A DNA stretch of 64,000 bases. Origin: Betaproteobacteria bacterium. Lineage in GTDB: Bacteria > Pseudomonadota > Gammaproteobacteria > Burkholderiales > SG8-41. Below the pieces are notes generated by a model. It saw only the letters and a list, made by a program, of their open reading frames with translations. It had not been told where the DNA came from and ran no database searches. Position numbers and translations under genes: made by a program. Of the stretch, positions 1,084 through 63,800 are shown one piece after another. Numbering within the stretch: the first letter of the stretch is position 1; every line of letters begins with the position of its first letter. The stretch lies in contig VGID01000001.1 in NCBI GenBank assembly GCA_016868035.1, positions 64,289-128,288 of the forward strand, read 5' to 3'.

Positions 1084-1162
1084 GAAGTTCAAGGCTTGAC
1101 GTTTTGAGGTTAAGGGTCGCGCCCCCTACACTCCAAACTTTGAAATCGGAGCTTTGAAAAGG
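1084..1162. repeat. weak heptamer-type region (GTTCAAG / CTTTGAA units)
   Basis: GAAGTTC AAGGCTT GACGTTT TGAGGTT AAGGG ... CTCCAAA CTTTGAA ATCGGAG CTTTGAA. Degenerate. Confidence 0.35.
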
Positions 1163-2374
1163 ATGTCCGTCACCCTTCCCTCGTCACTCATCACCGGGGT
1201 CAGGACGTTCCTGCCCGCGCTGGTGCTCGTCCTCGCCCTTCCCGCGGCGGCGGCGGAGTTCGCGGCGTGCCTCGGCAAGCTCCGCGGCGAGGCGGCGGCG
1301 CAAGGCATCACCCGGCAGACGTTCGACGCCGCGCTGGCCGGCGTCACGCCCGACAAGAGCGTGCTCGCCGCGATGGACTTCCAGCCCGAATTCGTCACGC
1401 CGGTCTGGGACTACCTCGCAGGCCTGGTGGACGAGCAGCGCATCATTGACGGCAAGGCGAAGCTCGACGAATGGGCCGCGGTGCTCGCCGAAGTGGAGCG
1501 GCGCTTCGGCGTGGACCGCCACGTCGTCGTCGCGCTGTGGGGCGTCGAGACCGATTACGGGCGGCTCACGGGCAAGCGCCCGCTGATGAGCTCGCTCGCG
1601 ACGACCGCGTGCATGGGCCGCCGCCAGCCGTTCTTCCGCGGCGAGCTCCTCGCGGCGCTGCGCATCCTGCAGGACGGGGACGTGCGTTCCGAGGCGCTGG
1701 TCGGCTCGTGGGCCGGCGCGTTCGGCCAGACCCAGTTCATGCCCTCGACCTTTCTCCGGCTCGCGGTAGACATGGACGGGGACGGGCGGCGCGACGTCGT
1801 CGGCTCCGTGCCCGACGCGCTTGGCTCCGCCGCGAACTACCTGCGCAACGCCGGCTACGCGAGCGGAGAGCCGTGGGGCTACGAGGTGCGCCTGCCGCAG
1901 GATTACCGCGGCCCGTCCGGGCGCCGCGAGCGGCGTGCGCTCGAGGAATGGGGCCGGCTCAAGATCCGCAAGGCCGATGGCGGCGCGCTTACCGGAAGCG
2001 GGCGTGCGGCGCTCCTCCTGCCCGCCGGGCGCGAGGGCCCGGCGCTGCTCATATTCCGCAACTTCGAGGCGATCCGCTCCTACAACCCGTCCGATTCCTA
2101 CGCGCTCGCGATCGCGCACCTCTCCGACCGGCTGCGCGGCGCCAGCCCGTTGCAGGCCGCGTGGCCGACCGACGACCCGGGGCTCTCGCGCGCCGAGCGC
2201 CGCGAGGTGCAGGAGCGGCTCGCCGCGCGCGGCTACGACGTGGGCGAGCCCGACGGGATCATCGGCTCGCGCACCCGCGCGGCGATCGAGGCGTTCCAGA
2301 AGACCGCCGGCCTTCCGGTGGACGGGCGTGCGGGCCGGCGGATGCTCAGCACGCTGCGGAATGCATCGCGCTGA
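1163..2374 (+). CDS. lytic murein transglycosylase (MltB/SLT_2 type) with C-terminal peptidoglycan-binding domain
   Basis: ORF 1154..2374. Signal peptide present, VALWGVETDYG and GQTQFMPSTF motifs, C-terminal PG_binding_1-like LSRAERREVQERLAARGYDVGEPDGIIGSRTRAAIEAFQ. ATG at 1163 preferred over TTG at 1154. Confidence 0.9.
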   Translation: MSVTLPSSLITGVRTFLPALVLVLALPAAAAEFAACLGKLRGEAAAQGITRQTFDAALAGVTPDKSVLAAMDFQPEFVTPVWDYLAGLVDEQRIIDGKAKLDEWAAVLAEVERRFGVDRHVVVALWGVETDYGRLTGKRPLMSSLATTACMGRRQPFFRGELLAALRILQDGDVRSEALVGSWAGAFGQTQFMPSTFLRLAVDMDGDGRRDVVGSVPDALGSAANYLRNAGYASGEPWGYEVRLPQDYRGPSGRRERRALEEWGRLKIRKADGGALTGSGRAALLLPAGREGPALLIFRNFEAIRSYNPSDSYALAIAHLSDRLRGASPLQAAWPTDDPGLSRAERREVQERLAARGYDVGEPDGIIGSRTRAAIEAFQKTAGLPVDGRAGRRMLSTLRNASR

Positions 2375-2382
2375 GCGCTGTC

Positions 2383-2468
2383 CCGGGTTCAAAGTTCAAG
2401 GTTCAAGGTTCAATTTTCAAGGCTTTAGACGAAAGACTTTGAACTTGGAACCTTGAACATTGAACCGG
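2383..2468. repeat. palindromic heptamer array, GGTTCAA type
   Basis: GGGTTCA AAGTTCA AGGTTCA AGGTTCA ATTTTCA, a 13-nt loop, then ACTTTGA ACTTGGA ACCTTGA ACATTGA ACCGG. Sits directly after the transglycosylase stop. Confidence 0.9.
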
Positions 2469-2676
2469 CCGCCCGCCGTCGCCCAGATGCCACCGCTGGG
2501 CCCCTGCTTGACGGCCGGGCGCCACGGGACCATGCTTTTCGCGGCAACGGACCAGGTGGACCGGCCACTGTAACAGCGACGCGTACCGGTCCCATAAGAA
2601 AAACAACACCGTTGCACCGCAACGCGGCATCGGCGCGTTTGGAAAACGCAATATCAACCCAACACGGGAGGACCTC

Positions 2677-3282
2677 ATGAAACGCTTGTTTGCTTCCATC
2701 GCGGCGCTGCTGGTCATCGTATTCACCGCTTTCGGCTGCGCCACCCCGGGCGGCCCCGGTTGGGACACGCTGATTGACGGCGAAAAAGGCATGGAAAACT
2801 GGAACAAGGTCGGCGACGCCAACTGGCGAGCGGAGGGCGGCGCAATCGTCGGCGACAAGGGCAAGGGCGGCTTTCTCATGTCGAAGAAATCCTACAAGGA
2901 TTTCGAGCTCTACATCGAGTTCTGGCCAGACCACACAGCCAACAGCGGCATCTACATGCGCTGTGCCGATGGCAATAACCCCACCGACAGGACCTGCTAC
3001 GAGGCGAACATCTTTGACCAGCGGGCCGATCAGAGCTACGCCACCGGCGGTATCGTCCACCGCGCCGTGGTGAATCCTGCACCTAAGGCCGGCGGCAAGT
3101 GGAATACCTACGAGATCCACATGAAGGGCACGCAATTGACCGTCAAGCTGAACGGCGTGGTCACCGCTTTCATGGAGGACAAGGATTTGCCGTCCGGGCC
3201 GTTCGGACTCCAGTTCGGCAACCGCGGCAAGGAACCAGGCGGCGCCATCAAGTTTCGAAAAGTAATGATCCGGGAACTGTGA
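2677..3282 (+). CDS. DUF1080 (3-keto-disaccharide hydrolase-like) lipoprotein
   Basis: ORF track, 201 aa. Lipobox FTAFGC, motifs DFELYIEFW..NSGIYMR and GPFGLQ, SD GGGAGG before the ATG. Confidence 0.85.
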   Translation: MKRLFASIAALLVIVFTAFGCATPGGPGWDTLIDGEKGMENWNKVGDANWRAEGGAIVGDKGKGGFLMSKKSYKDFELYIEFWPDHTANSGIYMRCADGNNPTDRTCYEANIFDQRADQSYATGGIVHRAVVNPAPKAGGKWNTYEIHMKGTQLTVKLNGVVTAFMEDKDLPSGPFGLQFGNRGKEPGGAIKFRKVMIREL

Positions 3283-3333
3283 GCGCTCGCGCCATGTAGC
3301 AACAAGCAGGGTCGAGGCTCGACGTCTTGCGGG

Positions 3334-3361
3334 AAAACGCCGCACCGTGCGCGGCGTTTTT
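3334..3361 (+). terminator. rho-independent terminator after the DUF1080 gene
   Basis: Perfect 10-bp stem AAAACGCCGC / GCGGCGTTTT (3334-3343 and 3351-3360), 7-nt loop, T-run to 3361. A-run on the other side makes it potentially bidirectional. Confidence 0.8.
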
Positions 3362-3406
3362 ACTTACATCGCTCCTCATTCGTCACCCGTCCCCGGGTAT
3401 CATCCC

Positions 3407-3455
3407 CTTTTGCCTTTTGCCTTTTGCCTTTTGCCTTCTGCCTTCTGCCTTCTGC
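3407..3455. repeat. tandem heptamers CTTTTGC x4 + CTTCTGC x3
   Basis: Seven perfect head-to-tail units, counted base by base. Confidence 0.95.
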
Positions 3456-3530
3456 CTCAGGCTCTCCCCATCACCCGTCATCCTTGCGCGTCACCGGTGA
3501 CCTGTTGTATCAAACGAAGGAAAGCGAAGC

Positions 3531-4448: not shown

Positions 4449-4484
4449 GCGCGGAATACGTTGACAACCTGGAGAGGTAACAAG

Positions 4485-5723: not shown

Positions 5724-5842
5724 CGCCGGTCTCACGGGCGCGATATACTTCCGTATCCGCTGTTCCGATACGATGGTTGGCGTGTTTTCTTGAGTCGGAC
5801 GGAGGTCGGCAGGTTCTCGTTCATCATCTAGCCGGAGGTACC

Positions 5843-6829: not shown

Positions 6830-6869
6830 GCCGCCGATCGCTGATGCACCAGGTTGCAGGGGTTGCGTG

Positions 6870-8258: not shown

Positions 8259-8291
8259 CCAGGCTCATCGAGCAAGAAAAGGAGGACTGTC

Positions 8292-8657: not shown

Positions 8658-8674
8658 CGGGGGCCTTGTTGAGC

Positions 8675-8746
8675 GATCAAGGTTCAAGGTCACGACGTCA
8701 CACCCCGAACATTGAGCCCGGAACGTTGAACGTCAACCCGTGAACG
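8675..8746. repeat. degenerate palindromic heptamer array (GTTCAAG / GTTGAAC)
   Basis: GATCAAG GTTCAAG GTCACGA CGTCACA CCCCGAA CATTGAG CCCGGAA CGTTGAA CGTCAAC CCGTGAA. Confidence 0.7.
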
Positions 8747-8772
8747 GGGCTGGCGTCCGTGCGCCGGCCGTT

Positions 8773-10065: not shown

Positions 10066-10088
10066 ATCCTCTTCCTCCCTGCGTTAAC

Positions 10089-10116
10089 GATGATATGGGT
10101 GATGGGTGATGGGAGC
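10089..10116. repeat. heptamer run, TGGGTGA type
   Basis: GATGATA TGGGTGA TGGGTGA TGGGAGC, between the divergent ridA and hydrolase genes. Confidence 0.7.
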
Positions 10117-11133: not shown

Positions 11134-11265
11134 GTGGCTCGTGACTCGTGACGGGTAAGCGGTAAGCGGCGAGCCGGAAAATCGCGAACCAGCCCGGAAC
11201 TCCGAACCCGGAACCCTGAACAGCGATCCCGGAACGCGAATTGCGCCCCGGGATTCGCGGTCCGT
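11134..11265. repeat. about 19 degenerate heptamers filling the whole hydrolase-peroxiredoxin spacer
   Basis: GTGGCTC GTGACTC GTGACGG GTAAGCG GTAAGCG GCGAGCC ... GAACTCC GAACCCG GAACCCT GAACAGC GATCCCG GAACGCG ... Also contains the hairpin GAACGCGAAT/ATTCGCGGTC. Confidence 0.75.
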
Positions 11266-11727
11266 TCAGAGCTTGCGCAGCTGCTCCAGCATCTCCGCGC
11301 TTTCGGGGATCTTGCCCGGCTCGTAGATCCTCGCGTAGCGGACCACGCCCTTGGCGTCGAGCACGTAGGCCGCGCGCTTGTCCGAGCCGCGCTCCTCGTT
11401 GAAGATGCCGTAGGCCTTGCCGACCGCGCCGTGCGGCCAGTAGTCCGAGAGCAGCGGGAAAGGCACGCCGCCCAGCTTCTCGGCCCACCCCTTGAGGCTG
11501 GCAACCGGGTCGGCGCTGATGTTGAGGATCTCGACGTTCAGCTTCTTGAATTCTTCGTAGTTCGCACGGAACCCGTTGACCTGGTTCGTTCACCCGGGGG
11601 TGAACGCGAACGGCATGAAGGCGACCACGACCGGCCGGCCCTTGAAGCTCGCGAGGGACACCTTCTGGTCGCTGTTGTGCGCGGCGAGCGTGAAATCAGG
11701 CGCGGCTGCGCCGGTCTGGATTTCCAT
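11266..11727 (-). CDS. AhpE/Bcp-type peroxiredoxin with in-frame UGA (probable selenocysteine) at the peroxidatic position
   Basis: Hand translation from ATG 11727 (SD GGGGAG): MEIQTGAAAPDFTLAAHNSDQKVSLASFKGRPVVVAFMPFAFTPG-[TGA 11592-11590]-TNQVNGFRANYEEFKKLNVEILNISADPVASLKGWAEKLGGVPFPLLSDYWPHGAVGKAYGIFNEERGS...LRKL. The length of 462 nt is divisible by 3. The ORF track shows only the 66-aa tail (11266..11466). Confidence 0.72.
11559..11589 (-). other. candidate SECIS region directly 3' of the UGA
   Basis: mRNA after UGA reads ACGAACC AGGUCAACG GGUUCCGU (7-bp stem with one bulge; the loop contains GGUC). An alternative is GGUUC CGUGC GAACU (5-bp stem; loop GU about 26-27 nt from the UGA). 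Folded by eye only. Confidence 0.45.
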
Positions 11728-11782
11728 GCGTTTTCTCCCCTGAATATGCGAAAAAACGGGGCCCGAAACCCCGTCTTTCCGC

Positions 11783-11822
11783 GGTGACTCCGTGACTCGG
11801 TGATTCAGCGACTGAGCGATTG
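11783..11822. repeat. octamer run, GTGACTCN type
   Basis: GGTGACTC CGTGACTC GGTGATTC AGCGACTG AGCGATTG. Confidence 0.75.
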
Positions 11823-13270: not shown

Positions 13271-13382
13271 TGCGTTCCGCGTTCGGGGTTCGGAGTTCGG
13301 GGTTCGGCTTCCAGTCCAGCGAACTTGAGCCTTCGAACCGACCGTATTTACCGCGTCACTTCATCAGTCGTCAGTCGTCACG
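13271..13382. repeat. 16-unit heptamer tract (GTTCGGG type changing to CAGTCGT type) overlapping a gene 3' end
   Basis: TGCGTTC CGCGTTC GGGGTTC GGAGTTC GGGGTTC GGCTTCC ... GTCACTT CATCAGT CGTCAGT CGTCACG. The last units encode R-D-D-stop of the 13371..14369 gene. Confidence 0.85.
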
Positions 13383-14515: not shown

Positions 14516-14675
14516 GAGCGCGTAACGAAATCAAGAAATATTAACCGCAGATAAACGCCGATACCCGCCGACGAAAACATAAAACCCTTTGGCTGTTCAT
14601 GGGGTTGTTGTTATCTGTGTTCATCGGCGTTCATCGGCGGTTTCAAGTTTTTTGGGTCTTTTTGATACGAGTTCT
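14516..14675 (+). mobile_element. 160-bp MITE-like element, copy A (no coding capacity)
   Basis: Gapless hand alignment to the reverse complement of 57461..57620 gives 135/160 identical. Internal decamer arms CGCAGATAAA/CGCCGATACC and inverse GTTCATCGGC x2. Bracketed by TA on both sides. Confidence 0.65.
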
Positions 14676-18085: not shown

Positions 18086-19309
18086 TCAGTCCGGCGTACC
18101 GGTGCCCGCCGGCGCCGCCTTCTTGCCGAGCCGCCGCAGGACCTTCACGCGCTGCACGGTGTCGCCCGCGAGGTGCGTCCACACCATCGCGTCGCGCACG
18201 AGCTTGTCCACGCGCGCGTGCATGATGCCGCCCTCGGCGCCGTGGATCTCCATGTTCAGGCGCGTGACGCGCTGTATGACGTCAGTGGAATAGTTCATGA
18301 CCAGGCCGGCGTTCGCGGAGTGCTGCCCGCGATCGTGCAGCCACGCCACGCGCATGACGTAGGAGCGCAGCGCTTCCGTGAGCGCGTGCATCTCGTTCAC
18401 CTTGAGCTGGACCAGCTGGTGCTCCATCAGATACTTGCCCGCGCGCTTGTGCTCCCTCGCGTAGCCGAGCGCCATCTCGCACGCGTCATCGCACACGCCG
18501 AGCGCGTTGGCCGCGAGCTCCAGGTCCCCGAACAGGTCGCCGCCGGTGGTGTCGCCCCGGCCGGCCTTCACAGAGCCGGTGCCCACCTCGCCCACGACGT
18601 TCGCGTGCGGCACCCGCGCGTTCTCGAAGATGAGCTCGGCGTTCTGGTAGAAGCGCCAGCCGCGCTTGTTGAAGATCTTGCCGACGCGGAAGCCCGGCGT
18701 GGTTTTCGGCACCATGAACAGCGTGCCGCCGTGCTTGATGTTGACGTCCGGGTTGGTGCGCGCGTCCACGAAGAACAGCGAGCCCACGCTCCCGTTCGCG
18801 ATGAAGCACTTCTCGCCGTTCAGGATCCACTCGTCGCCCTCGCGCACCGCCCGCAGCCGGTAGCCCGCCTTCGGGTCGTCCTCCGGCGGCATGCGGTTGT
18901 CGGATCCGGCGTTGGGCTCGGTGATCCCGCGGCCCATCACGTAGCGGTGGTCCGCGAGAAAGGGCTTGAGGAAGCGCTCCTTCTGGTCCGGATTGCACGC
19001 GATCGCGATCAGGTGGCTCCACTTCCAGTTCTGGCTGAAGGCCTTGGAAATGGCGCTGTCCCCGCGGGCGAGCTCGGCCATCACCACGGCCTGCGTCACG
19101 AAATCGGCGCCGGGACCGCCCCACTCCTTGGGCACCGCGAGCGTGCGGAAGCCGAGCTTCGAGCCCTTCTCGATGATCCCCCAGTCCCACGGCTCGAAAC
19201 CGCCCTCGATCTGGTCGCGCTCCATCGAGATCGGGCGGATCTCGTCCTCCGCGAACTTGCGCGCCTCGTTCTGCCAGTGGCGCTGCTCTTCGTTCAGCGA
19301 AAAATCCAT
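18086..19309 (-). CDS. acyl-CoA dehydrogenase family protein
   Basis: ORF 18086..19321. ATG 19309 (MDFSLNEEQRHW...) preceded by GGGAG. ACAD N, middle and C-terminal layout, GITEPNAGSD motif. Confidence 0.9.
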   Translation of the reverse strand: MDFSLNEEQRHWQNEARKFAEDEIRPISMERDQIEGGFEPWDWGIIEKGSKLGFRTLAVPKEWGGPGADFVTQAVVMAELARGDSAISKAFSQNWKWSHLIAIACNPDQKERFLKPFLADHRYVMGRGITEPNAGSDNRMPPEDDPKAGYRLRAVREGDEWILNGEKCFIANGSVGSLFFVDARTNPDVNIKHGGTLFMVPKTTPGFRVGKIFNKRGWRFYQNAELIFENARVPHANVVGEVGTGSVKAGRGDTTGGDLFGDLELAANALGVCDDACEMALGYAREHKRAGKYLMEHQLVQLKVNEMHALTEALRSYVMRVAWLHDRGQHSANAGLVMNYSTDVIQRVTRLNMEIHGAEGGIMHARVDKLVRDAMVWTHLAGDTVQRVKVLRRLGKKAAPAGTGTPD

Positions 19310-19324: not shown

Positions 19325-19430
19325 GCGTGATGACTGACGAGTGACGGCTGACAGCTAAAGACCGGCGCCCTTGTCATCTGCGCCGGGTTCATCGGTGTTC
19401 CTCACTCATCAGTCGTCAGTCGTCACCGCC
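19325..19430. repeat. palindromic heptamer array, GACTGAC / CAGTCGT type
   Basis: GCGTGAT GACTGAC GAGTGAC GGCTGAC AGC ... CTCACTCA TCAGTCG TCAGTCG TCACCGC. Spacer between the two ACAD genes. Confidence 0.82.
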
Positions 19431-20673: not shown

Positions 20674-20705
20674 CCGGGGTCAAGGTTCAAAGTTCAAGGT
20701 CAGCG
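20674..20705. repeat. heptamer run, GGTTCAA type
   Basis: GGGGTCA AGGTTCA AAGTTCA AGGTCAG, 10 nt upstream of the ACAD ATG (20664). Confidence 0.8.
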
Positions 20706-20783
20706 AGCCGGCATCTTACCAGCCGCGGACGCGGGAAAGGACTCGGTGTCAGCATGTGGAACGCCGGGCAGGCGCCGAGGCGC

Positions 20784-20889
20784 CGTTCCGGGTTCCGGGT
20801 TCAACGTTCAGGGTTCAACGTTCGGAATACAGGGCTCTGGCGCCTCTCACCTCTCACCTCTCGCCTCTCTTCTCTCGTCGCTCGTCAGG
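20784..20889. repeat. 15-unit heptamer tract (GGTTCCG/GGTTCAA changing to CTCTCAC/CTCGTCG) ending on a stop codon
   Basis: CGTTCCG GGTTCCG GGTTCAA CGTTCAG GGTTCAA CGTTCGG ... GCGCCTC TCACCTC TCACCTC TCGCCTC TCTTCTC TCGTCGC TCGTCAG. TCA 20885-20887 is the Ldh2 stop. Confidence 0.85.
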
Positions 20890-24810: not shown

Positions 24811-24900
24811 AAACCGCCGATGAACGCCGATGAACGCAGATGAGGCCCTACGGAGCCCGGCAGCGGAGGTATCGGCGTTTATCTGCGTTTATCTGCGGTT
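24811..24900. repeat. short decamer-arm hairpin element (related to the core of the 160-bp element)
   Basis: AAACCGCCGATGAACGCCGATGAACGCAGATGAG ... ATCGGCGTTTATCTGCGTTTATCTGCGGTT. It shares the GAAACCGCCGATGAACGC and ATCGGCGTTTATCTG-GGTT ends with 57491-57592. It fills the whole spacer between the hydro-lyase beta stop and the flavoprotein ATG. Confidence 0.8.
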
Positions 24901-24904
24901 GTGT

Positions 24905-25519
24905 TCAGCTGTTCTTGACGCCGAGGGAGGCGAGCGCGGCGGCGCGCTTCTCGCGCGCGGCCTTGTTGACCTGCGTGTAGATGCTGCCGCCGCGGCTGTC
25001 CATGGACACGAGCAGCGGGCCGAAGCCCTTCACGCGGAACTTCCACAGCGACTCGGGGTTGAGGTCGTCGAGATCCACGTCCTCGATTGCCTCGACCCAG
25101 GTGGTCTCGAGCGCCGCCGCGCCCCCGACGATCGCGAGGTAGGCGCCGCCCAAGTCCTTGAACGCGGAGAGCGAGCCCTCGGCGAGGCCGCCCTTGCCAA
25201 TGATGACGCGCACGCCGTACTGCTCCATGAGCGGGCGCGAAAAGCGCTCCATGCGCGCGCTGGTCGTGGTCCCGATACACAGCGGCGCATAGCCCGTCGG
25301 GTGCGCCTTGGACTTCTCGACCTTCCTGACGTTGGGAGCGGTGTGGATCACGGCGTGCCCGCTCATGTCGAAGCGCGTCTTGCGGCCGCGGTCGAACATG
25401 TGGATGTGGGTTCCGTCGCGGATGCCGTAGAGCGTGCCGTTCAGCGTGACGGTGTCGCCGATGCGCCATTCGCGCACCTGCTCCGCGGTGACCGGCATGT
25501 TGATGTCGTGATGCGCCAT
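24905..25519 (-). CDS. Fe-S hydro-lyase beta subunit (class I fumarate/tartrate dehydratase C-terminal type)
   Basis: ORF track, 204 aa. LRIGDTVTLNGTLYGIRD and VIIGKGG motifs. No SD before ATG 25519. Confidence 0.86.
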   Translation of the reverse strand: MAHHDINMPVTAEQVREWRIGDTVTLNGTLYGIRDGTHIHMFDRGRKTRFDMSGHAVIHTAPNVRKVEKSKAHPTGYAPLCIGTTTSARMERFSRPLMEQYGVRVIIGKGGLAEGSLSAFKDLGGAYLAIVGGAAALETTWVEAIEDVDLDDLNPESLWKFRVKGFGPLLVSMDSRGGSIYTQVNKAAREKRAAALASLGVKNS

Positions 25520-25567
25520 TCAGAATCCGTGAATGGTGAATGGTGAAACGTGAATCGAGAAAAACAT
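25520..25567 (-). CDS. candidate 15-codon coupling mini-ORF (MFFSIHVSPFTIHGF) inside the inverted heptamer array
   Basis: Strong SD AGGGAGGAG (25580-25572), ATG 25567-25565, and a TGA stop (25522-25520) that directly abuts the beta-subunit ATG (25519-25517). Hand translated. Confidence 0.3.
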   Translation of the reverse strand: MFFSIHVSPFTIHGF

Positions 25568-25616
25568 CGTGCTCCTCCCTTACGATTTGCGATTCACGAT
25601 TTACGATTAACGCTTT
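25520..25616. repeat. inverted heptamer arrays (GTGAATN / ACGATTT) filling the alpha-beta intercistronic spacer
   Basis: TCAGAAT CCGTGAA TGGTGAA TGGTGAA ACGTGAA TCGAGAA ... CTTACGA TTTGCGA TTCACGA TTTACGA TTAACGC. Confidence 0.85.
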
Positions 25617-26530: not shown

Positions 26531-26586
26531 CCACTCAATCCTCAGTCCTCAGTCCTCAATCCTCGATGCTCAGCCCTGCCGTCAAT
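26531..26586. repeat. heptamer run, TCCTCAG type, overlapping a stop codon
   Basis: CCACTCA ATCCTCA GTCCTCA GTCCTCA ATCCTCG ATGCTCA GCCCTGC CGTCAAT. TCA 26582-26584 is the Bug gene stop. Confidence 0.85.
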
Positions 26587-30249: not shown

Positions 30250-30260
30250 ATGTCAGCTGC

Positions 30261-30436
30261 AATCGCCGATGAACGCCGATACACACCGATCGCCTTCGTG
30301 AAACGTGAATCGTGAATCGTGAATCGCGAAACCACCGGATCGATCGGGAAAGTCCGGGTGATCCTTCTGCGCATTACCCATTCCCCATGACCGGTTTCCA
30401 TCCGCGTTCATCGGCGTTCATCGGCGGTTTCAAATG
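30261..30436. repeat. composite repeat: decamer arm + GTGAATC heptamers + inverted decamer arm
   Basis: Left arm AATCGCCGATGAACGCCGATACACACCGAT. Then GTGAAAC GTGAATC GTGAATC GTGAATC GCGAAAC. Right arm GCGTTCATCGGCGTTCATCGGCGGTTTCA, whose TCA is the stop codon of the 30430..30786 gene. Confidence 0.8.
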
Positions 30437-30786
30437 AAGACGGCGTAGACGGCGCGAAAGCCGAGAACCGCGAGCACGATGCCGATCATCAGCACGGTCG
30501 CCTCCAGCGCCCGCCCGCGCCACTGGAACGTCTCCGAAAGCACCGTGCGCAGACCGATCGGCGCGTGGATCGCAACCGCCGCCACGAACAGCGCGTAGAA
30601 CGCGGCCCAGCCCACGCTGCCCCGGGTGCGCGAGAGGATCTCCGCGGCGGTGAGCCCACCCTGCACGGCGTAGATCATGGTGAGCAGATGCACGAGCACG
30701 CACGCGGCCAGAACCGCCGCGCTCGCCCGCTGCGCCGTCCACAGCAGAACCTGCGCGCGGACGCTGAGCTCTCCGTCACTCGTCAC
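30430..30786 (-). CDS. small integral-membrane protein, SdhD/FrdD-like anchor candidate
   Basis: ORF track, 118 aa. Three TM helices. GTG start and first codons lie inside a CGTCACT array 11 nt after the Fe-S subunit stop. Confidence 0.55.
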   Translation of the reverse strand: MTSDGELSVRAQVLLWTAQRASAAVLAACVLVHLLTMIYAVQGGLTAAEILSRTRGSVGWAAFYALFVAAVAIHAPIGLRTVLSETFQWRGRALEATVLMIGIVLAVLGFRAVYAVFI

Positions 30787-30808
30787 TCGTCACTCCGTCA
30801 CTCCGTTA
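30771..30808. repeat. CGTCACT heptamer array spanning a stop / SD / start junction
   Basis: CTC CGTCACT CGTCACT CGTCACT CCGTCACT CCGTTAC. It contains the Fe-S subunit stop (30798-30800) and the GTG start (30786-30784) of the next gene. Confidence 0.9.
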
Positions 30809-40414: not shown

Positions 40415-40475
40415 TGCGGCGTGACAGGCGAGGCGTGACGCGATGAGGCGTGACCGGCGAATCACGATTCACGGG
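40412..40475. repeat. 14-nt (2 x 7) repeat carrying GGCGTGAC, then a CACGATT pair
   Basis: GCGGCGTGACAG GCGAGGCGTGACGC GATGAGGCGTGACC GGCGAATCACGATTCACGG. Confidence 0.6.
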
Positions 40476-45466: not shown

Positions 45467-45529
45467 AGAAGTTTCGCGTTCCGGGTTTCGGGTTTCGAGT
45501 TCATCGACGGCTCGGAACCTGAGACCCGC
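45467..45529. repeat. heptamer run, CGGGTTT type, filling the pilC-pilD spacer
   Basis: GAAGTTT CGCGTTC CGGGTTT CGGGTTT CGAGTTC ATCGACG GCTCGGA ACCTGAG ACCCGC-ATG. Confidence 0.7.
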
Positions 45530-47883: not shown

Positions 47884-47928
47884 AACTCTGCCGGGCCCGC
47901 GTCCGGCAAATTCCTTATTGAGCAGGAC

Positions 47929-48150
47929 ATGGATTCAAAGCCACGCGTCGTAAACTGTCCGACCTGTGGCAAGGCCGCGTCATGGACGCCAGGCAATGTC
48001 TGGCGTCCATTCTGCTCCGAGCGCTGCAAGATGATCGACCTCGGCGCGTGGGCGGACGAGAGGTACCGCGTCCCGGTGGCCGAGGACAAGGACCAGCTGG
48101 AGGTCCAGAGCCCCGATGCGGCGCCGACGGACGCCGCTGGACGCCGATAG
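47929..48150 (+). CDS. yacG: DNA gyrase inhibitor YacG (zinc finger)
   Basis: ORF track, 73 aa. CPTCGK...[14 protein letters not shown]. Confidence 0.9.
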
Positions 48151-48177: not shown

Positions 48178-48250
48178 AAGATGAACACGGATGGCGCCGC
48201 AGATGAGCGCAGATATGACTCAACCTTCTGCCTGCCGCCTTCCGCCTCGC
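48178..48250. repeat. half-site of the decamer family followed by a CTGCC-type heptamer run
   Basis: AAGATGAACA CGGATGGCGC CGCAGATGAG CGCAGATATG, then TTCTGCC TGCCGCC TTCCGCC TCGCGG. Confidence 0.5.
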
Positions 48251-51083: not shown

Positions 51084-52076
51084 CTAGGCTGCCCAAGCGG
51101 CGCGCATCATGCTGATGCCGTGCGCGCCGGACCGCCACGCGGTTTCCAGGTCCGGCGGATTGAGCCCCCCGAGCGCATACACCGGCAACGGATAGTCGCG
51201 CACCATCGCGGCGAACCGCTTCCACCCCATGCCCCGCGCTTCCGGATGGCTGGGCGTGGGCAGGACCGGGCCCAGCACCACGAGATCCACACCGAGCGCC
51301 GCTGCGCGCGCGAGTTCCTCCGCGTCATGACACGAAGCGCCGACGAGCTCGAGCTCCGGCCTCGCCCCGATCCGCGCAAGCTGCGCGGCGGTGAGATGCA
51401 CGCCGTCCGCGCCCACCCGCTGCGCGAGCGCCGCATCGGCGTTCACCAGCACCCGCGCGCCGCTCGCGTGCGCAAGGCGCACGACTTCCGCAGCCAGGCC
51501 GCGCAGCTCGTCCGGGGCGAGGCTCTTTTCGCGCACCTGCAGCAGCTTGAGGCCCCGATCGAGAGCGCGCTGCAGCCGCCGCAGGAGCTCGGTCCGGCCG
51601 AGCGCCGCGGCATTGGTGATGCCATAGACCGGGGGGAGCCTCAGCGCGCGCAATATCGGTGCGTTCGCGGGCAGCAGCGGGCCCACGTCCACCGCCGCCG
51701 GCGACTGCCATACAAAACGCTGGTTTTCCCTGCCGTGGAGCTCGCCGGACCAGCGCATCACGCGGAAGAAGCGCAGCCGCACCGCGGCGTGCGCGTAGTC
51801 GTAATCGCGGGTGAGCCATGGGTGGGCGCTTTTCACCTCGATGCCGAGCTCCTCGTGCAGCTCGCGCGTGAGCGCTGCGAGCGGCGTCTCGTCGGCCTCG
51901 ACCTTGCCGCCGGGAAATTCCCAGTATCCGCCGTAGGGCTTGCCCGCCGGACGCTGCCCGAGCAGGAACGTGCCATCCTCGCGCAGGACGACGGCCGCGG
52001 CGACCTCCACTCTCGAGGGGGATGAATGACGGGCGACGGGTGACGGGTCCGCGGCGGCGTCGAAATTGCTGCTCAT
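51084..52076 (-). CDS. Nudix (MutT-like) hydrolase fused to a thiamine-phosphate-synthase-like (ThiE) domain
   Basis: ORF 51084..52151. Nudix box GGKVEADETPLAALTRELHEELGI. C-terminal TIM-barrel ThiE-like region (GADGVHL, VYALGG). The start is uncertain (GTG 52151, ATG 52076 or GTG 52010). Confidence 0.83.
   Translation of the reverse strand: MSSNFDAAADPSPVARHSSPSRVEVAAAVVLREDGTFLLGQRPAGKPYGGYWEFPGGKVEADETPLAALTRELHEELGIEVKSAHPWLTRDYDYAHAAVRLRFFRVMRWSGELHGRENQRFVWQSPAAVDVGPLLPANAPILRALRLPPVYGITNAAALGRTELLRRLQRALDRGLKLLQVREKSLAPDELRGLAAEVVRLAHASGARVLVNADAALAQRVGADGVHLTAAQLARIGARPELELVGASCHDAEELARAAALGVDLVVLGPVLPTPSHPEARGMGWKRFAAMVRDYPLPVYALGGLNPPDLETAWRSGAHGISMMRAAWAA
52021..52050. repeat. heptamer run, GACGGGT type, inside the annotated 5' end of the Nudix-ThiE gene
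   Basis: GATGAAT GACGGGC GACGGGT GACGGGT. Confidence 0.6.
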
Positions 52077-53081: not shown

Positions 53082-53199
53082 GGAGAGGCGATAGAAGAGA
53101 GGGGATAGGCGTCAAACCCGGGCGACTGCATCGATGCCTTGCCCCTCTCTCCTCTCTCCTCTCTCCTCTCTCCTCTCTCCTCTATCGTCTATCGTCAGG
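53082..53199. repeat. purine arm + pyrimidine heptamer array (CCTCTCT x5, CCTCTAT, CGTCTAT, CGTCAGG)
   Basis: Left arm GGAGAGG CGATAGA AGAGAGG GGATAGG. Right arm 53144-53199, counted unit by unit. The last unit contains the argJ stop (53195-53197). Confidence 0.9.
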
Positions 53200-54625: not shown

Positions 54626-57445
<2,820 letters not shown>

Positions 57446-57460
57446 CCGCGCCGGGCTCTA

Positions 57461-57620
57461 AGAGCGCGTGTCAAAAAGGCCCAAAAAGCTCGAAACCGCC
57501 GATGAACGCAGATACACGCAGATAACAACAAGCCTGTGAACACCCAAAACGCTTTTTGTTTTCGTCGGCGTGTATCGGCGTTTATCTGTGGTTAACATTT
57601 CTTGATTTTGCTACCGGCTC
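57461..57620 (-). mobile_element. 160-bp MITE-like element, copy B (inverted relative to copy A), in the secA leader
   Basis: See copy A. It starts 15 nt upstream of the secA ATG, ends 1 nt from the M23 terminator, and is bracketed by TA dinucleotides. Confidence 0.65.
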
Positions 57621-57621
57621 T

Positions 57622-57654
57622 AAACAAAAAGGGGTGGGGAACCTGCCCCACCCC
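57622..57654 (-). terminator. rho-independent terminator after the M23 peptidase gene
   Basis: Minus strand reads GGGGUGGGG CAGGUU CCCCACCCC UUUUUGUUU. 9-bp G/C stem (57631-57639 and 57646-57654). Confidence 0.88.
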
Positions 57655-57680
57655 CCTTCGGAATTCCTTTCTGTAAACCG

Positions 57681-58598: not shown

Positions 58599-58619
58599 GT
58601 TCACGCTCCCCGCACCCGC

Positions 58620-59075
58620 ATGCCTGCGCACAAACTAGGCGATCTGCTCGCCAGCTCGGGCGCGCTTCGCGCGCTCTCGCGCGAGGCGCGGCACTTGGCT
58701 CGATTGCAACAGGTGCTGTTTGAAGCCGTTCCTCCCCCGCTCACAACGGCGACCCGGGTCAAGAGTCTCCGGGCAGGAACGCTAATCCTAATTACCGATC
58801 ATGCGGCCGCGGCTGCCAAGCTGCGGCAACTCGCACCGCGTTTGTTATTGCACGTGCAAAAACGGCACACGGAGGTTACTGGAATTAGAATTGAAGTGCA
58901 AGTTCAGACGCAACAAAAATCCGCGCGCGCCGCGCCCGGAAAATCCTGGCTACCCATTGATGCAATTGAACATTTTCGGGCCCTTGCGGAACGTGTGCAG
59001 GATTCCCCACTGCGCTCGGCTCTGACCCGTTTGGTGCGGCGCAACAAGGGAAACCGGAAATCCGGCACACCTTAG
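58620..59075 (+). CDS. DUF721 / DciA-like protein
   Basis: ORF track, 151 aa. LGDLLASSGALRALSREARHLARLQQVLFEAVPPPL and GTLILITDHAAAAAKLRQLAPRLL resemble the DUF721 family. Divergent from the M23 gene, with starts 21 bp apart. Confidence 0.68.
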   Translation: MPAHKLGDLLASSGALRALSREARHLARLQQVLFEAVPPPLTTATRVKSLRAGTLILITDHAAAAAKLRQLAPRLLLHVQKRHTEVTGIRIEVQVQTQQKSARAAPGKSWLPIDAIEHFRALAERVQDSPLRSALTRLVRRNKGNRKSGTP

Positions 59076-59076
59076 C

Positions 59077-59262
59077 TTAGATCACCAGCACCAGGCGCTC
59101 GAGCAGATAGAACACGGCAAAGAGCACCAGGAAGACGAACGCAAACTGGAGGATCCGCCACGCGAACGTGAGATAGCGGCGGTCGCGGGTGAAGAAATAG
59201 ATCGCGAGCGAGCCCGCGATGGACACCAGCACCAGGAGCCCGACCAGCCTGAGAACCAGCAT
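59077..59262 (-). CDS. small two-TM membrane protein (hypothetical)
   Basis: ORF track, 61 aa. MLVLRLVGLLVLVSIAGSLAIYFFTRDRRYLTFAWRILQFAFVFLVLFAVFYLL. Weak SD. Confidence 0.4.
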   Translation of the reverse strand: MLVLRLVGLLVLVSIAGSLAIYFFTRDRRYLTFAWRILQFAFVFLVLFAVFYLLERLVLVI

Positions 59263-59264
59263 TC

Positions 59265-59362
59265 GCCGTTCCGCGTTACGGGTTCAAGGTTCAAGGTTCA
59301 AGGCAGGCAACCAGAACGTCGACCTTGAACTTGGAACCTGGAACGTTCAACCCGGAACCCGG
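59265..59362. repeat. palindromic heptamer array, GGTTCAA type
   Basis: CCGTTCC GCGTTAC GGGTTCA AGGTTCA AGGTTCA AGGC, loop, then ACCTTGA ACTTGGA ACCTGGA ACGTTCA ACCCGGA ACCCGGG. Lies between the lpxC stop and the small membrane ORF. Confidence 0.9.
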
Positions 59363-59380
59363 GCGCTGAAGGCGCGCCGG

Positions 59381-60292
59381 TTAGGCCAGCTGCGGCTGCC
59401 AGGTCAGGAAAGCCGGGGCGTCCTCGATCCGCTCGAAGCTCGCGTATTCCCAGGCTTGCTCGTCCTCGAGCAGGCGCCGCAGCAGATGATTGTTCAGCGC
59501 GTGGCCCGATTTGTGTCCGTGGAACGCGCCGATCAGCGGGTGCCCCAGCAGGTAGAGATCGCCGATCGCGTCGAGGACCTTGTGCTTGACGAACTCGTCC
59601 TGGTAGCGCAGCCCGTCGTTGTTGAGCACGCGGTACTCGTCCATCACGATCGCGTTGTCGAGGCTCCCGCCGAGCGCCAGTCCCTGGGCACGCATCGATT
59701 CGACATCCTGCATGAATCCGAACGTGCGCGCGCGGCTCACTTCCTTGATGTACGAGGTGGTCGAGAAGTCCACGCACACCGACTGGCGCGCCTTTTCGAA
59801 CACGGGGTGATCAAAGTCGATGCTCATCGTGAGCTTGAAGCCGTCGTGCGGCTCGAAGCGCACCCATTTGTCGCCATCGGCCGCCTCGACCGGCTTCACG
59901 ATGCGGATGAAGCGCTTGGGCGCGCCCTGTTCCTCGATGCCCGCCGACTGGAGCAGGAACACGAAAGGCCCCGCGCTGCCATCCATGATGGGCACCTCGG
60001 GGGCGGTGAGATCCACGTACGCGTTGTCTATGCCCAGGCCGGCGAAGGCCGACATGAGATGCTCGACGGTCGAGATGCGCGCGCCATCGCGCTCCAGGCA
60101 CGAGGAGAGCCGTGTGTCGCTCACGGCGTACGGGTTGGCCTTGACCTCGACCGGCTGCGCGAGATCGGTACGGCGAAACACGATGCCCGAGTTGGGCGCC
60201 GCGGGACGTAGCGTGAGGTAGACCTTAACTCCGGTGTGCAGACCCACGCCGGTGGCGCGGATCATGTTTTTCAGCGTGCGCTGCTTGATCAA
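59381..60292 (-). CDS. lpxC: UDP-3-O-acyl-N-acetylglucosamine deacetylase
   Basis: ORF track, 303 aa. (TTG)[28 protein letters not shown] before the TTG start. Confidence 0.96.
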
Positions 60293-60520
60293 CGAAAACT
60301 CCCTGATTTTTCATGTCCTTAAGGCGCGAAGTCTACCACGCCCCGGTATTGCGGCGCAAAAAAATTGTAACGAAGCGTTATTCGCACGGCTCGTTCCCGG
60401 CATACGGCATTTCGCTTTCAGCGATCAGCGGCTGGTGGAGCTGCCGGCGAACGGCGATCGGCCCCTCCGCGGCAAAGCCGCGTGCGGCGGGTCTGTTCGC
60501 TGGCGGCTGCCGGCTGACCG

Positions 60521-61684
<1,164 letters not shown>

Positions 61685-61762
61685 CGAGTACCTCCTTTTC
61701 CTGGTCAACGATCAAAAACGAAAAAAACGAGTGCCCTTCCGTCCACGATGTGTCCGCCGTCC

Positions 61763-63001
61763 CTAGAAATTGCCGGTGAACCACGATTTCATCCTCTCGA
61801 CCGTCTGCTGGACCGGCCCGGCCTGCAGGCGCGCGAGCTCCTTCTGCCGGTGCTGCTGCGTGCCCGCCATGAGCAGTCCGACCCCGGTGGAGTAGCGCGG
61901 GTGGCGCACGTACTCCGAAAGCGCGCCGTTGTAGCTCGAATGCCCGACTCGCACCGGCATGTGCAGGATCTCCTCGCCCAGCTCGACCATGCCGCGCATG
62001 ACGCTCGAGCCGCCGGTGATCACCACGCCCGAAGAGAGCAGCTCCTCGTAGCCACTGCGGCGCAACTCGGCCTGCACCAGCGAGTAGAGCTCCTCCACGC
62101 GCGGCTCGATCACCTCCGCCAGCGTCTTGCGCGAGAGCTGCCGCGTCCCGCGGTCACCGAGCCCCGGCACGTCCACCATCTCCTGCGGATCGGCGAGCTG
62201 CGAGAGCGAGCACCCGTAGCGCTCCTTGATGTCCTCCGCGTCCTTGGTGGGCGTCCTCAACGCCATCGCGATGTCGTTGGTGATCTGGTCGCCCGCGATG
62301 GGGATGACGGCGGTATGCCGGATCGCGCCGTGCGTGAAGACCACGACGTCGGTCGTCCCGCCCCCGACGTCCACCAGCGCCACGCCCAGGTCCTTCTCGT
62401 CTTCCGAGATGACGGCCATGGCGGAGGCGAGCGGCTGCAGCACGAGGTCGCGCACCTCCAGCCCGCAGCGGCGCACGCACTTGACGATGTTCTGCGCGGC
62501 CGAGACGGCCCCGGTCACGATGTGCACCTTGACCTCGAGGCGCACACCGCTCATGCCGAGCGGCTCGCGCACGTCCTCCTGGCCGTCGATGATGAATTCC
62601 TGGTTGAGGATGTGCAGCACCTGCTGGTCGTTCGGAATCTGCACCGCCTTGGCCGTGTCGATCGCGCGCTCGATATCGGTCTGCACGACCTCCTTGTCCT
62701 TGATCGCCACCATGCCCTGGGAGTTGAAGCTCCTGATGTGGCTGCCGGCGATCCCCGTGTAGACTTCGCGGATCTTGCAGTCGGCCATCAACTCCGCTTC
62801 CTCCAGCGCGCGCTGGATCGAGTTGACCGTCGTGTCGATGTTCACGACCACGCCCTTTTTCAGCCCGCGCGAGGGGTGGCTGCCCATGCCGATGATCTCG
62901 AAGCCTCCCTCGGGCTTGATCTCCGCGACGATGGCGGCGATCTTGGAAGTCCCGATGTCGAGACCCACCATCAGTTTCTTGCTGTCTCTGGCCTTGGCCA
63001 T
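61763..63001 (-). CDS. ftsA: cell division protein FtsA
   Basis: C-terminal 412 codons of ORF 61763..63238, from ATG 63001. LMVGLDIGTSKIAAIV, VDVGGGTTD. Confidence 0.96.
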   Translation of the reverse strand: MAKARDSKKLMVGLDIGTSKIAAIVAEIKPEGGFEIIGMGSHPSRGLKKGVVVNIDTTVNSIQRALEEAELMADCKIREVYTGIAGSHIRSFNSQGMVAIKDKEVVQTDIERAIDTAKAVQIPNDQQVLHILNQEFIIDGQEDVREPLGMSGVRLEVKVHIVTGAVSAAQNIVKCVRRCGLEVRDLVLQPLASAMAVISEDEKDLGVALVDVGGGTTDVVVFTHGAIRHTAVIPIAGDQITNDIAMALRTPTKDAEDIKERYGCSLSQLADPQEMVDVPGLGDRGTRQLSRKTLAEVIEPRVEELYSLVQAELRRSGYEELLSSGVVITGGSSVMRGMVELGEEILHMPVRVGHSSYNGALSEYVRHPRYSTGVGLLMAGTQQHRQKELARLQAGPVQQTVERMKSWFTGNF

Positions 63002-63018
63002 GTCCCCGTTCCCGGCTC

Positions 63019-63759
63019 CTATCCCGCGCGCCGCGCCGCCGGCGGCCCGCTTTTCTTGTCGCGCAGTTCCGGAATGCGCACGGCGAAACCGTTCGCGTAG
63101 CGCAGGTCCACGTACTCGAGGCGCCGCTCGAGGCGCGCGAGCGTGCGCTCGTAGACCGCGACGAAGCGCGCGAGACGTGCCTCCATCTGCTCGCGCCCGA
63201 GCTCGATCGTGAGCCCGCTCGCGAGCTTCAGCTGCCACGCGCGGCGAGGCGTGATGCTCAGCTGCACCGGTGTCTCGCCGATCGGCACGAGGCTGCGGCG
63301 GAAGTACTCGAACTGGATCGCGATTTCCTTGGCAGTGCCCGCAGGCCCGATGAACAGCGGCAGCTCGCCCCCGTAGCTCGCCTTGAACACTTCACCATGG
63401 GTGTTCACGAGCGCCACGTCGGCCCAGCGCGCGAGCGGCCGGTGTTCCTCGAACCGGATCTCGAGCCGGTCGGGCCAGTGGCGCCGCACCTCGGCCCGCC
63501 GCACCCAGGGCAGCGTCTGAAACGCAGTGCGCGTTGCGGCGAGGTCGAGCGTGAAGAAGTTGCCCTTGAGCTCGCGCCTAGCAACGGACTCGATCTGCTC
63601 GCGGGTGACATGCGTGAGCTCGCCGTCCACATGCACTTCCTTCAGCGGGAAAGCCGGCGAGTGGATCACGAGCAGGATCGCGGCATAGAGCGCGAGCAGC
63701 GCCGCCGCACCGTAAAGCGCGTTCGCGATGGCGTTCAGCGTGTCCGGTCTATCCCACAT
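63019..63759 (-). CDS. ftsQ: cell division protein FtsQ
   Basis: ORF track, 246 aa. N-terminal TM helix, POTRA-like region. Position ddl-ftsQ-ftsA-ftsZ. Confidence 0.9.
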   Translation of the reverse strand: MWDRPDTLNAIANALYGAAALLALYAAILLVIHSPAFPLKEVHVDGELTHVTREQIESVARRELKGNFFTLDLAATRTAFQTLPWVRRAEVRRHWPDRLEIRFEEHRPLARWADVALVNTHGEVFKASYGGELPLFIGPAGTAKEIAIQFEYFRRSLVPIGETPVQLSITPRRAWQLKLASGLTIELGREQMEARLARFVAVYERTLARLERRLEYVDLRYANGFAVRIPELRDKKSGPPAARRAG

Positions 63760-63773
63760 GGCTACGCCCGCTC

Positions 63774-63800
63774 CGGGTTTCGAGTTCCGGGTTCCGGCTC
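63774..63800. repeat. heptamer run, CCGGGTT type, in the ddl-ftsQ spacer
   Basis: CCGGGTT TCGAGTT CCGGGTT CCGGCTC. Confidence 0.7.

Follow-up and report, generated by a model that had tools for sequence, protein, structure and literature searches.

Heptamer tandem arrays and palindromes with periodic arms in the intergenic spacers of an uncultured Burkholderiales bacterium

Described tandem heptamers and the arrays of the window

A stretch of 64,000 nucleotides (nt) from an uncultured Burkholderiales bacterium (assembly GCA_016868035.1, contig VGID01000001.1, positions 64,289 to 128,288 of the forward strand; hereafter the window) carries head-to-tail arrays of short units, mostly of 7 nt, in many of its intergenic spacers. 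The arrays are real, reproducible and nearly confined to spacers; their units fall into a few families, and about one third of them are paired with an inverted copy. According to the summaries in PMC4679880 and PMC4692102, Mrazek et al. (2007) found heptanucleotide repeats to be the commonest class of long simple-sequence repeats (SSRs), counted four Burkholderia genomes and Xanthomonas campestris among the richest, and proposed polymerase slippage as the cause. As summarised there, those SSRs resemble the present arrays in their head-to-tail units of 5-11 nt (7 nt dominant), in their intergenic position when the unit is not a multiple of 3, and in their enrichment in high-GC non-pathogens including Burkholderia and Xanthomonas. 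The window differs from them in that its arrays are about 40-fold denser than in some 160 related loci (2.6 Mb) and in that many are inverted-paired.

Three further systems are close in architecture. In Xanthomonas, Rehm et al. (2015; PMC4692102) described intergenic GGGAATC arrays with some 70 convergent inverted pairs; these lie on average 28 nt from the upstream open reading frame (ORF), and keep their position from species to species but not their length. The arrays of Xanthomonas and Nostoc (GGGAATC, GGGGAYT) and those of the window are alike in being intergenic heptamers, in their convergent inverted pairs and in following closely on the upstream ORF (28 nt, compared with 26 nt here). 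However, Xanthomonas has one G-tract unit that is able to form a G-quadruplex, whereas the window has several families, none of them G-rich. Tandem dimers of GGGNATC or GGGGAYT were absent from the window, as were tandem units of TAACTGA and of GGGAATC/GGGGATT; the sole GGG-containing unit in this comparison was ATGGGTG, at 2.7 copies. TAACTGA direct repeats were described by MacGregor (2015; PMC4679880) in marine Beggiatoaceae, cyanobacteria and Bacteroidetes. They offer the parallel of a heptamer that recurs across distant phyla, as (GGTTCAA)3 and a decamer element do in viral contigs (see below), but they are located just 5' of start codons and are almost never inverted, whereas the arrays of the window mostly follow stop codons and are often paired. 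Finally, Aklujkar et al. (2009; PMC2700814) reported paired sites in Geobacter metallireducens, consisting of three to five tandem 7-9-mers on opposite strands, for which binding of IHF/HU was proposed. That description (7-9(10)-nt units) is matched by the elements of the window, which share with classes 1-3 the three to five tandem units, the opposite-strand pairs at variable distance, the multiple copies and the intergenic position. Class 2 (TCTCCGTS) resembles 8-mer elements found in three of the loci compared below (L170, L171 and L151), although the phylum is another and most units are different. The preliminary description of the window knew of no such repeats in a GC-rich proteobacterium; this was incorrect, since the work of Mrazek et al. 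(2007, as summarised), Rehm et al. (2015) and Aklujkar et al. (2009) makes the kind already known.

The same description likened the arrays to the short tandemly repeated repetitive (STRR) sequences of cyanobacteria. The likeness is sound as to kind (heptamers repeated in tandem outside coding DNA, a single genome having several types of unit) and fails as to membership: no tandem dimer of the STRR1-3 units was present in the window, in any rotation or on either strand. Those units are CCCCAGT (STRR1), TTGGTCA (STRR2) and CAACAGT (STRR3), and they belong to the heterocystous cyanobacteria, which are of another phylum and another GC content.

Repetitive extragenic palindromic (REP) sequences are imperfect palindromes of 20-40 nt with a GTAG-type head, present as near-identical copies and linked to a gene for a REP-associated tyrosine (Y1) transposase (RAYT). 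Like the REP sequences of gamma-proteobacteria and their compounds, the bacterial interspersed mosaic elements (BIMEs) and the REP doublets forming hairpins (REPINs), the elements of the window are intergenic or intercistronic, would be transcribed, can form hairpins and occur as inverted pairs with variable linkers. By this analogy, REP, BIME and REPIN sequences are likely the model for any effect of the elements on mRNA. Unlike REP sequences, however, the arms are built of tandem units and lack both an internal dyad and GTAG, and the genes called over about 77 kb included none for a RAYT or Y1 transposase.

Periodicity, unit families and inverted pairs

Arrays were detected using Tandem Repeats Finder (TRF), by lag self-matching compared with 200 dinucleotide shuffles, and by a strict lag score; the gene map consisted of the called genes, corrected for two uncalled coding stretches. 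The intergenic DNA of the window matched itself at lag 7 with a frequency of 0.341, compared with 0.262 ± 0.005 in the shuffles (z = 15.8), and harmonics were evident at lag 14 (z = 10.1) and lag 21 (z = 6.0). By the same autocorrelation, coding DNA of the window had no lag-7 signal and only the period-3 signal. The lag-7 excess on which the preliminary description had staked its claim is thus present in the window and is intergenic. The strict score yielded 11 intergenic arrays at lag 7, three at lag 10 and five at lag 14, and none at the remaining lags from 4 to 15; one further array was partly coding. TRF reported 32 period-7 rows, 27 of which were intergenic, with spacers making up about 13% of the window. 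On the corrected map, arrays made up 11.3% of the bases in spacers, compared with 0.38% of those in coding DNA. Two hallmarks of long SSRs are found here, namely near-perfect head-to-tail units of 1-11 nt in excess of chance (by TRF and the lag-7 z-score) and exclusion from coding DNA of unit lengths that are not a multiple of 3.

Much of the earlier picture was borne out by these data. All of its example coordinates carry the unit given for them (TRF and spacer sequences), and drift from one unit type to another within a tract is seen at 3406-3457, 13272-13380 and 20785-20884. The arrays are AT-richer than their surroundings (GC 0.54, compared with 0.61 in other intergenic DNA and 0.675 in coding DNA), and several end at gene borders, where they adjoin or overlap stop codons (13364-13380, 20843-20884, 53144-53196). 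Their extent had been overstated, in that arrays were said to fill most spacers, at least 25 of about 40. By TRF, 21 of the 56 spacers of at least 25 nt bear an array; when the two uncalled coding stretches are corrected for, the count is 19 among the 44 spacers that reach 60 nt. Only seven spacers consist of array to 40% or more.

The window was compared with four independent metagenome assemblies of Lake Tanganyika samples (ENA ERZ27247963, JGI 3300020198, JGI 3300020220 and Logan SRR7990525). There were no indels and 0-2 single-nucleotide polymorphisms, none of which fell inside an array; a 176-kb ENA contig (ERZ27247963 k141_306781) had four mismatches to the window over the stretches compared. 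Because the four assemblies agree without indels, the arrays are not assembly artefacts; proof that they were would, according to the preliminary description, have been fatal to its claim. Copy-number variation within the population was likewise absent among these four assemblies.

That description also held that each locus has a different unit, which proved wrong. Among 28 period-7 units, 44 pairs differ by one mismatch or less, compared with 7.3 ± 2.8 for random units. The GGTTCAA/GGTTCSG family accounts for 13 of the units and the GTGAMTC/GTGACGA family for seven; the rest are one CCTCTCW pair and six singletons. A stop triplet within a 7-nt unit places stops in all three frames, and arrays were considered as all-frame stop signals. 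A stop on one strand was counted by us in 18 of the 28 units, compared with about 44% by a rough estimate from composition; the idea was dropped as weak because the family structure makes the units non-independent.

Once all spacers were printed, many arrays were seen to have a reverse-complement partner 13-110 nt further on. Paired arrays number 14 of 39 in the window and 13 of 245 in 2.59 Mb of other loci. In an inverted-repeat search, the paired arms were 25-38 nt long and 73-89% complementary. Among the regions folded, twelve had z ≤ -3.7 on at least one strand, the best lying between -5.6 and -6.6. On the transcribed strand the hairpin was stronger in five cases and weaker in seven, i.e. 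there was no consistent bias, and, in our reading of the folded sequences, degenerate unit positions are mostly mismatched between the arms. That many arrays form the arms of long hairpins, and that their units recur as families, are two features that had been overlooked.

The period-10 arrays of the window constitute one conserved family, the decamer element, with the form 5'-AACCGC-(MGATRAACGC)2-3 ... loop ... (GCGTTYATCK)2-3-GCGGTT-3'. Four copies (14543-14642, 24812-24900, 30253-30437 and 57494-57593) and a half copy (about 48180-48225) are present in the window. The loops, of 24-110 nt, are unrelated in sequence between copies, and no target-site duplication was visible in the flanks of the four copies; on both counts the element was rejected as a miniature inverted-repeat transposable element (MITE). 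The decamer sequence matched no Rfam family, and no occurrence of it was found in the searchable literature. Of everything described here, it is the component with the best chance of being new.

The arrays and elements of the window are as follows (z-scores are for folding; MFE is the minimum free energy, given with the shuffled value where available; I-numbers are those of the inverted-repeat search).

2386-2466: GGTTCAA x5 and inverted TTGAACC x4, a hairpin 11 nt past the SLT_2 stop codon (I7, 28-nt arms, 89% complementary; MFE -38.0 compared with -20.7, z = -5.6)
3406-3457: unpaired CCTTTTG x4 followed by CCTTCTG x3, 3' of a canonical terminator at 3336-3363 (TRF score 83, 97% matches)
8680-8745: degenerate GGTTCAA-type inverted pair in a convergent spacer (TRF period 14; weak fold, z = 0.4 and -1.7)
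10095-10113: ATGGGTG x2.7 in a divergent spacer (TRF and strict score)
11134-11239: GTGACTC, GGTAAGC and CCCGGAA arrays in a convergent spacer (TRF)
11782-11813: period-8 GTGACTCC array between the Sod_Cu stop codon and the Sod_Cu terminator (TRF)
13272-13380: GTTCGGG-type array with inverted partner (13272-13345; weak hairpin, + strand MFE -29.6, z = -1.0), then TCAGTCG across the 2-Hacid_dh stop codon
14427-14520: period-8 CAGTGAYT and its inverted complement, a hairpin (MFE -39.1 compared with -21.5, z = -6.3)
14543-14642: decamer palindromic element (I4; z = -4.3 and -6.6)
19327-19426: GTGAYGA/TCAGTCG inverted pair occupying the whole ACAD-ACAD spacer (I18; z = -4.9)
20680-20884: three arrays in one spacer, namely TCAAGGT/TTCAAAG (its orthologue in L168 is an 8-copy array), GTTCCGG/GTTCAAC, and CCTCTCA adjoining the Ldh_2 stop codon
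22913-23030: GGTTCCG/GTTCAAC and inverted AACTTTG, a hairpin (TRF; z = -2.6 and -5.1)
24812-24900: decamer element filling the FumB-SdhA spacer (z = -5.0), with a family member in the equivalent spacer of L169
25529-25612: GTGAATG/GTGAATC and inverted CGATTYA, filling the FumA-FumB spacer (a GTGAATC/GATTCAC pair; z = -3.9)
26534-26572: CTCAATC/CTCAGTC x5.6 (sense GAGGATT/GAGGACT), 9 nt past the TctC stop codon
30253-30437: decamer element with nested CGTGAAT x5 at 30296-30330 (I1, 38-nt arms; z = -3.7)
30771-30806: CGTCACT array at the SdhB/SdhC junction; the L168 equivalent is CACTCAT x5
40418-40460: period-14 GGCGTGAC-type array in a convergent spacer (TRF)
45471-45528: GTTTCGG and inverted partner filling the PilC-PilD spacer (+ strand MFE -32.9, z = -4.1)
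48180-48247: decamer-like half element (AGATGAACAC...) and a CCTTCCG array in a convergent spacer (TRF)
53083-53196: CCTCTCT x5.7 and TCTATCG adjoining the ArgJ stop codon, with a purine-rich (GAGAGG-rich) inverted partner at 53083-53113 (TRF score 80; I8; z = -4.1)
57494-57593: decamer element between the M23 peptidase gene and SecA (I2; z = -6.2)
59268-59358: GGTTCAA x3.3 and inverted ACCTGGA-type array, a hairpin after LpxC (I3, 36-nt arms; z = -4.4 and -4.3)
63772-63797: TCCGGGT x3.7 upstream of FtsQ (TRF)

The blocks of variant units at 3406-3457 (four CCTTTTG, then three CCTTCTG) are a signature of local duplication. Elements are found in four of five convergent spacers, 16 of 46 co-directional ones and one of five divergent ones, at a median distance of 26 nt from a gene 3' end. 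Four whole intercistronic gaps in what are likely operons (FumA-FumB, FumB-SdhA, SdhC-SdhD and PilC-PilD) are filled by elements.

Arrays and decamer elements in relatives and viral contigs

For a comparison based on SecA, 80 loci from species genomes and 80 from metagenomes were assembled, the best SecA identity being 74-78%. Strict lag-7 arrays numbered 1.9 per 10 kb in the window, about 0.05 in the genome loci (1.5 Mb) and 0.04 in the metagenome loci (1.09 Mb). Since these SecA neighbourhoods were nearly free of arrays, they afforded no comparison of orthologous arrays. Two exceptions, a Luteimonas locus (L070) and that of a gammaproteobacterial metagenome-assembled genome (MAG; L065), have GGGATTC and AGGGGTT arrays in inverted pairs, an architecture that matches the heptamer repeats of Xanthomonas and Nostoc. 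Such inverted 7-/8-mer pairs were noted in distant loci, gammaproteobacterial and other, at L070 5499-5665 (Luteimonas sp. WGS1318), at L065 9713-9896 and at L151 16188-16293 and 19991-20048. Their units are GGGATTC, AGGGGTT, CACCAAGA and CACAGAGA/CTCCGTGC, and the stretch that they flank is 10-130 nt long; the CACAGAGA/CTCCGTGC unit resembles the Geobacter class 2 consensus TCTCCGTS.

A search with the SdhA-like gene retrieved closer, syntenic loci: L168 (90% amino-acid identity), L169 (86%), L170 (84%) and L171 (83%). Of these, L168 and L170 showed the intergenic lag-7 excess (z = 6.1 and 5.8, respectively); in L171 it was weak, and L169 had none. The Sulfatase-TctC spacer, which carries no array, agrees at 88 of 89 positions in the window and L168. 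The GAGGATT array that follows TctC (TctC-FumA spacer) has the same start base and an identical 5' flank in both, and comprises 5.5 units in the window and 10.5 in L168, where it has a period-14 superstructure. The TTGAACC array before ACAD1 has three units in the window and eight in L168. Whole-unit changes of copy number between related genomes, as expected of SSRs, are thus observed at two arrays. The FumA-FumB spacer measures only 7 nt in L169, whereas the window, L168, L170 and L171 each have a different periodic hairpin there, four in all. A family of ACAGGATTA hairpins occurs twice in L168. The comparison of orthologous spacers that the preliminary description proposed accordingly yielded whole-unit differences and replacement of elements between close relatives. 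Taken together, the relatives show that orthologous arrays share a start base and grow or shrink by whole units, that close relatives differ by the gain, loss or replacement of elements, and that the trait belongs to the clade.

The decamer element is present at L169 9840-10000 and at L170 9065-9171. It is located in the FumB-SdhA spacer in the window and in L169, and in the FumA-FumB spacer in L170; variants built of 8-mers but bearing the decamer termini were found in L170 and L171. In a viral collection, the double decamer unit was found in 25 contig stretches, at least eight of which have both arms and the AACCGC/GCGGTT termini (among them L172, L174, L180, L182, L189, L193 and L194; contig GC 0.49-0.64).

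In the same collection, exact (GGTTCAA)3 was found in 42 contig stretches (GC 0.35-0.67), several of which have a TTGAACC partner, and exact (GTGAATC)3 in 31; two composition-matched shuffled heptamers gave 12 and 11. By our own rough estimate, which is not a computed value, fewer than one exact 21-mer match would be expected by chance. GGTTCAA and GTGAATC were considered as special sequences, but the approximately 3-fold excess is due in part to redundant phage copies and is too weak for a claim of sequence specificity. Heptamer arrays are therefore frequent whatever the sequence of the unit, and those units that occur in the window exceed the others only modestly.

Among the long simple-sequence repeats of many bacteria, heptamer repeats are the most frequent class, and the uncultured freshwater Burkholderiales clade described here provides a natural case of unusual density. 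Its relatives, graded at 90%, 86%, 84% and 83% identity in a marker protein, have the same spacers in states that range from 7 nt and element-free to about 100 nt and filled by a hairpin, so that the birth, whole-unit growth, replacement and loss of elements can be observed directly. The clade also offers a route to asking whether the palindromic pairs act on mRNA and whether the decamer element is mobile or protein-bound.

Explanations considered and the gene context

On balance, we lean towards the explanation that the arrays are heptanucleotide repeats driven by slippage which, together with REP-like extragenic palindromes with periodic arms, have proliferated in this one uncultured clade. 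Arrays would be created and resized by slipped-strand mispairing during replication, and the preference for 7 nt would be the one that Mrazek et al. noted across bacteria, to judge from the summaries of that survey. Template switching mediated by hairpins, or the insertion of palindromic units, may have given rise to the inverted arms or may maintain them. Indels of 7, 8 or 10 nt would be purged from genes; as such indels shift the reading frame, their removal would produce the abrupt ends of arrays at gene borders. The decamer class would behave more like a dispersed REP/BIME-like element than like a microsatellite arising in situ, given its conserved AACCGC...GCGGTT termini, its unrelated loops and its presence in other clades and viral contigs. 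Since most elements either begin 0-30 nt past a stop codon or take up an intercistronic gap, transcripts would include them and fold there into long hairpins. Any effect would probably be REP-like, with the hairpins shielding the 3' end, serving in processing or covering the ribosome-binding site that follows; we infer, nonetheless, that no dedicated function is necessary to explain the presence of the elements.

Several results weigh against this explanation. The recurrence of units across unrelated spacers, far above that of random units, would not be predicted by purely local slippage, nor would the retention of the decamer sequence and its termini in distant genomes and in viral contigs of differing GC. 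Copy number is identical in the four assemblies of one population, and hence, over that span of time, the arrays do not behave as hypermutable loci. Slippage does not by itself account for the 7-nt period, for which a polymerase footprint has been put forward as a possible cause. The hairpins, moreover, are not consistently stabler on the transcribed strand.

Possible, but in our estimation rather unlikely, is that the arrays are dispersed elements of the REP/BIME or MITE type that are recognised by a protein (a RAYT-type transposase or a nucleoid-associated protein of the sort proposed for Geobacter), with the three to five units of an arm serving as iterated binding sites and slippage acting only later. 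The small number of unit families spread over many spacers would fit such recognition. So would the decamer, which has conserved termini, two or three units per arm and unrelated loops, and which occurs four to five times in 64 kb, in two relatives and in at least eight viral contigs; its 10-nt period would set all units on one face of the DNA helix. The repeated ACAGGATTA hairpin family in L168 and the resemblance of the 8-mers TCTCGGCG/TCTCCGTA to the class 2 consensus (TCTCCGTS) of G. metallireducens point in the same direction. However, the arms are non-palindromic and without the GTAG head of REP sequences, the genes called over about 77 kb encode no domain of the Y1-transposase or RAYT type, and the four decamer copies show no visible target-site duplication. 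The unconserved loops argue against a MITE-like copy-and-paste unit, the composition-matched control heptamers widely form arrays as well, and the degenerate unit positions are mostly mismatched between arms. In a broader and, we think, unlikely version, palindromes with periodic arms would form a class of intergenic element in their own right, spread across phyla and served by dedicated machinery (a transposase or a DNA- or RNA-binding protein) that reads iterated 7-10-nt units, and the heptamer arrays of the clade would stem from that machinery, not from generic polymerase slippage.

It is improbable that the elements are selected cis-acting signals in RNA or DNA, such as hairpins at 3' ends or between cistrons that govern mRNA stability, RNase III processing or translational coupling, or purine-rich arrays that hold ribosomes past stop codons in the manner of a Shine-Dalgarno sequence. 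In favour of such signals are the 26-nt median distance to gene 3' ends, the prevalence in convergent over divergent spacers, the four intercistronic gaps filled exactly by hairpins, the presence of a hairpin in the same spacers of five relatives despite differing sequences, and the sense orientation of all four GAGG-type arrays. The numbers are small, however. A scan for intrinsic terminators, which had been candidates for the arrays, found 15, compared with 12.9 expected, which is no excess; the elements lack a U-tract, and no match spanned a complete long periodic hairpin. Canonical terminators at 3336-3363, 11750-11775 and 57628-57662 are separate from the arrays. No Rfam family was matched at the gathering score, and at E ≤ 1 the hairpins gave only spurious matches to miRNA precursors. 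With hairpins stronger on the transcribed strand in five cases and weaker in seven, a role at the RNA level has no support from strand asymmetry. Further points against selected signals are the FumA-FumB spacer of L169, which is only 7 nt long, and the orthologous spacers of the closest SecA relatives, which are devoid of arrays. For annotation there is a warning here: "hairpins" or "repeats" in the spacers of GC-rich MAGs can belong to an ordinary periodic class and need not be terminators, small RNAs (sRNAs) or CRISPR-like arrays.

In the hmw promoters of Haemophilus influenzae, heptanucleotide repeats switch genes by copy number. That the present arrays are contingency loci of this sort, turning neighbouring genes on and off, is very improbable. 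Unit numbers do vary between relatives, and a few arrays (3406, 10095, 20680) lie upstream of start codons; on the other hand, assemblies from four different samples agree exactly, most arrays are 3' of genes or inside operons, and the neighbours are housekeeping or catabolic genes, not surface antigens. An artefactual or chance origin merits practically no credence, having been refuted already by the identical sequence in the ENA, JGI and Logan assemblies and by the lag-7 comparison with shuffles, and the arrays are shorter than one sequencing read.

The layout of genes in the window is of the Burkholderiales type, with ftsQAZ-lpxC (the end of the dcw cluster), secA, argJ, pilCD-coaE-zapD, rpsP-rimM-trmD-rplS and ffh, along with a fumarate reductase/fumarase cluster and many TctC genes. 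One protein encoded there is identical to the NCBI entry MBM3356182.1.

Some observations concern the sequence in and around the arrays. Purine-rich arrays resembling Shine-Dalgarno sequences (GAGGATT, GAGAGGT, GGAGAGA and AAGGAGC) are on the sense strand, 0-10 nt past a stop codon, in four of four cases (26534-26572, 20843-20884 and 53144-53196 in the window; 15869-15939 in L293). In the loop of the FumA-FumB hairpin (25519-25573, - strand), a strong Shine-Dalgarno motif (GGGAGGAG) and a start codon, the ATG at 25558, open an ORF of 15 codons; this ORF runs through the second repeat arm, and its TGA adjoins the ATG of FumB (TGAATG), an arrangement that may serve translational coupling. A TGACGGG x3 array at 52027-52048 is situated within the called N-terminus of the NUDIX/TMP-TENI gene, the start of which has probably been called too early.

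Other observations are of the genes themselves. At 47884-48030, the ZapD-YacG "spacer" appears to code for the N-terminal, zinc-finger part of YacG, and the called start of YacG is probably too late. An uncalled ORF of 151 amino acids at 58620-59075 (+ strand) encodes DciA (PF05258, E = 3.6e-14); it lies in the 478-nt "spacer" that separates lpxC from the M23 peptidase gene. The Rfam sRNA family Xoo8 was matched below threshold at 60220-60497 (- strand; 34.5 bits, gathering score 90, E = 3.8e-6), between lpxC and ftsZ and upstream of the former. The 98-nt tRNA-His reported by ARAGORN at 18508-18605 (- strand) is probably a false positive, because it is over-long and lies within a coding sequence, that of an acyl-CoA dehydrogenase. 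Finally, an AhpC/TSA peroxiredoxin gene (11266-11727, - strand) was called as two fragments on account of an in-frame TGA at precisely the position expected of the catalytic cysteine (FAFTPG*T). With Cys in place of the TGA, a full-length match to PF00578 is obtained (E = 3.9e-36), and the sequence is the same in all assemblies compared; judged from these features, the gene probably encodes a selenocysteine peroxiredoxin.

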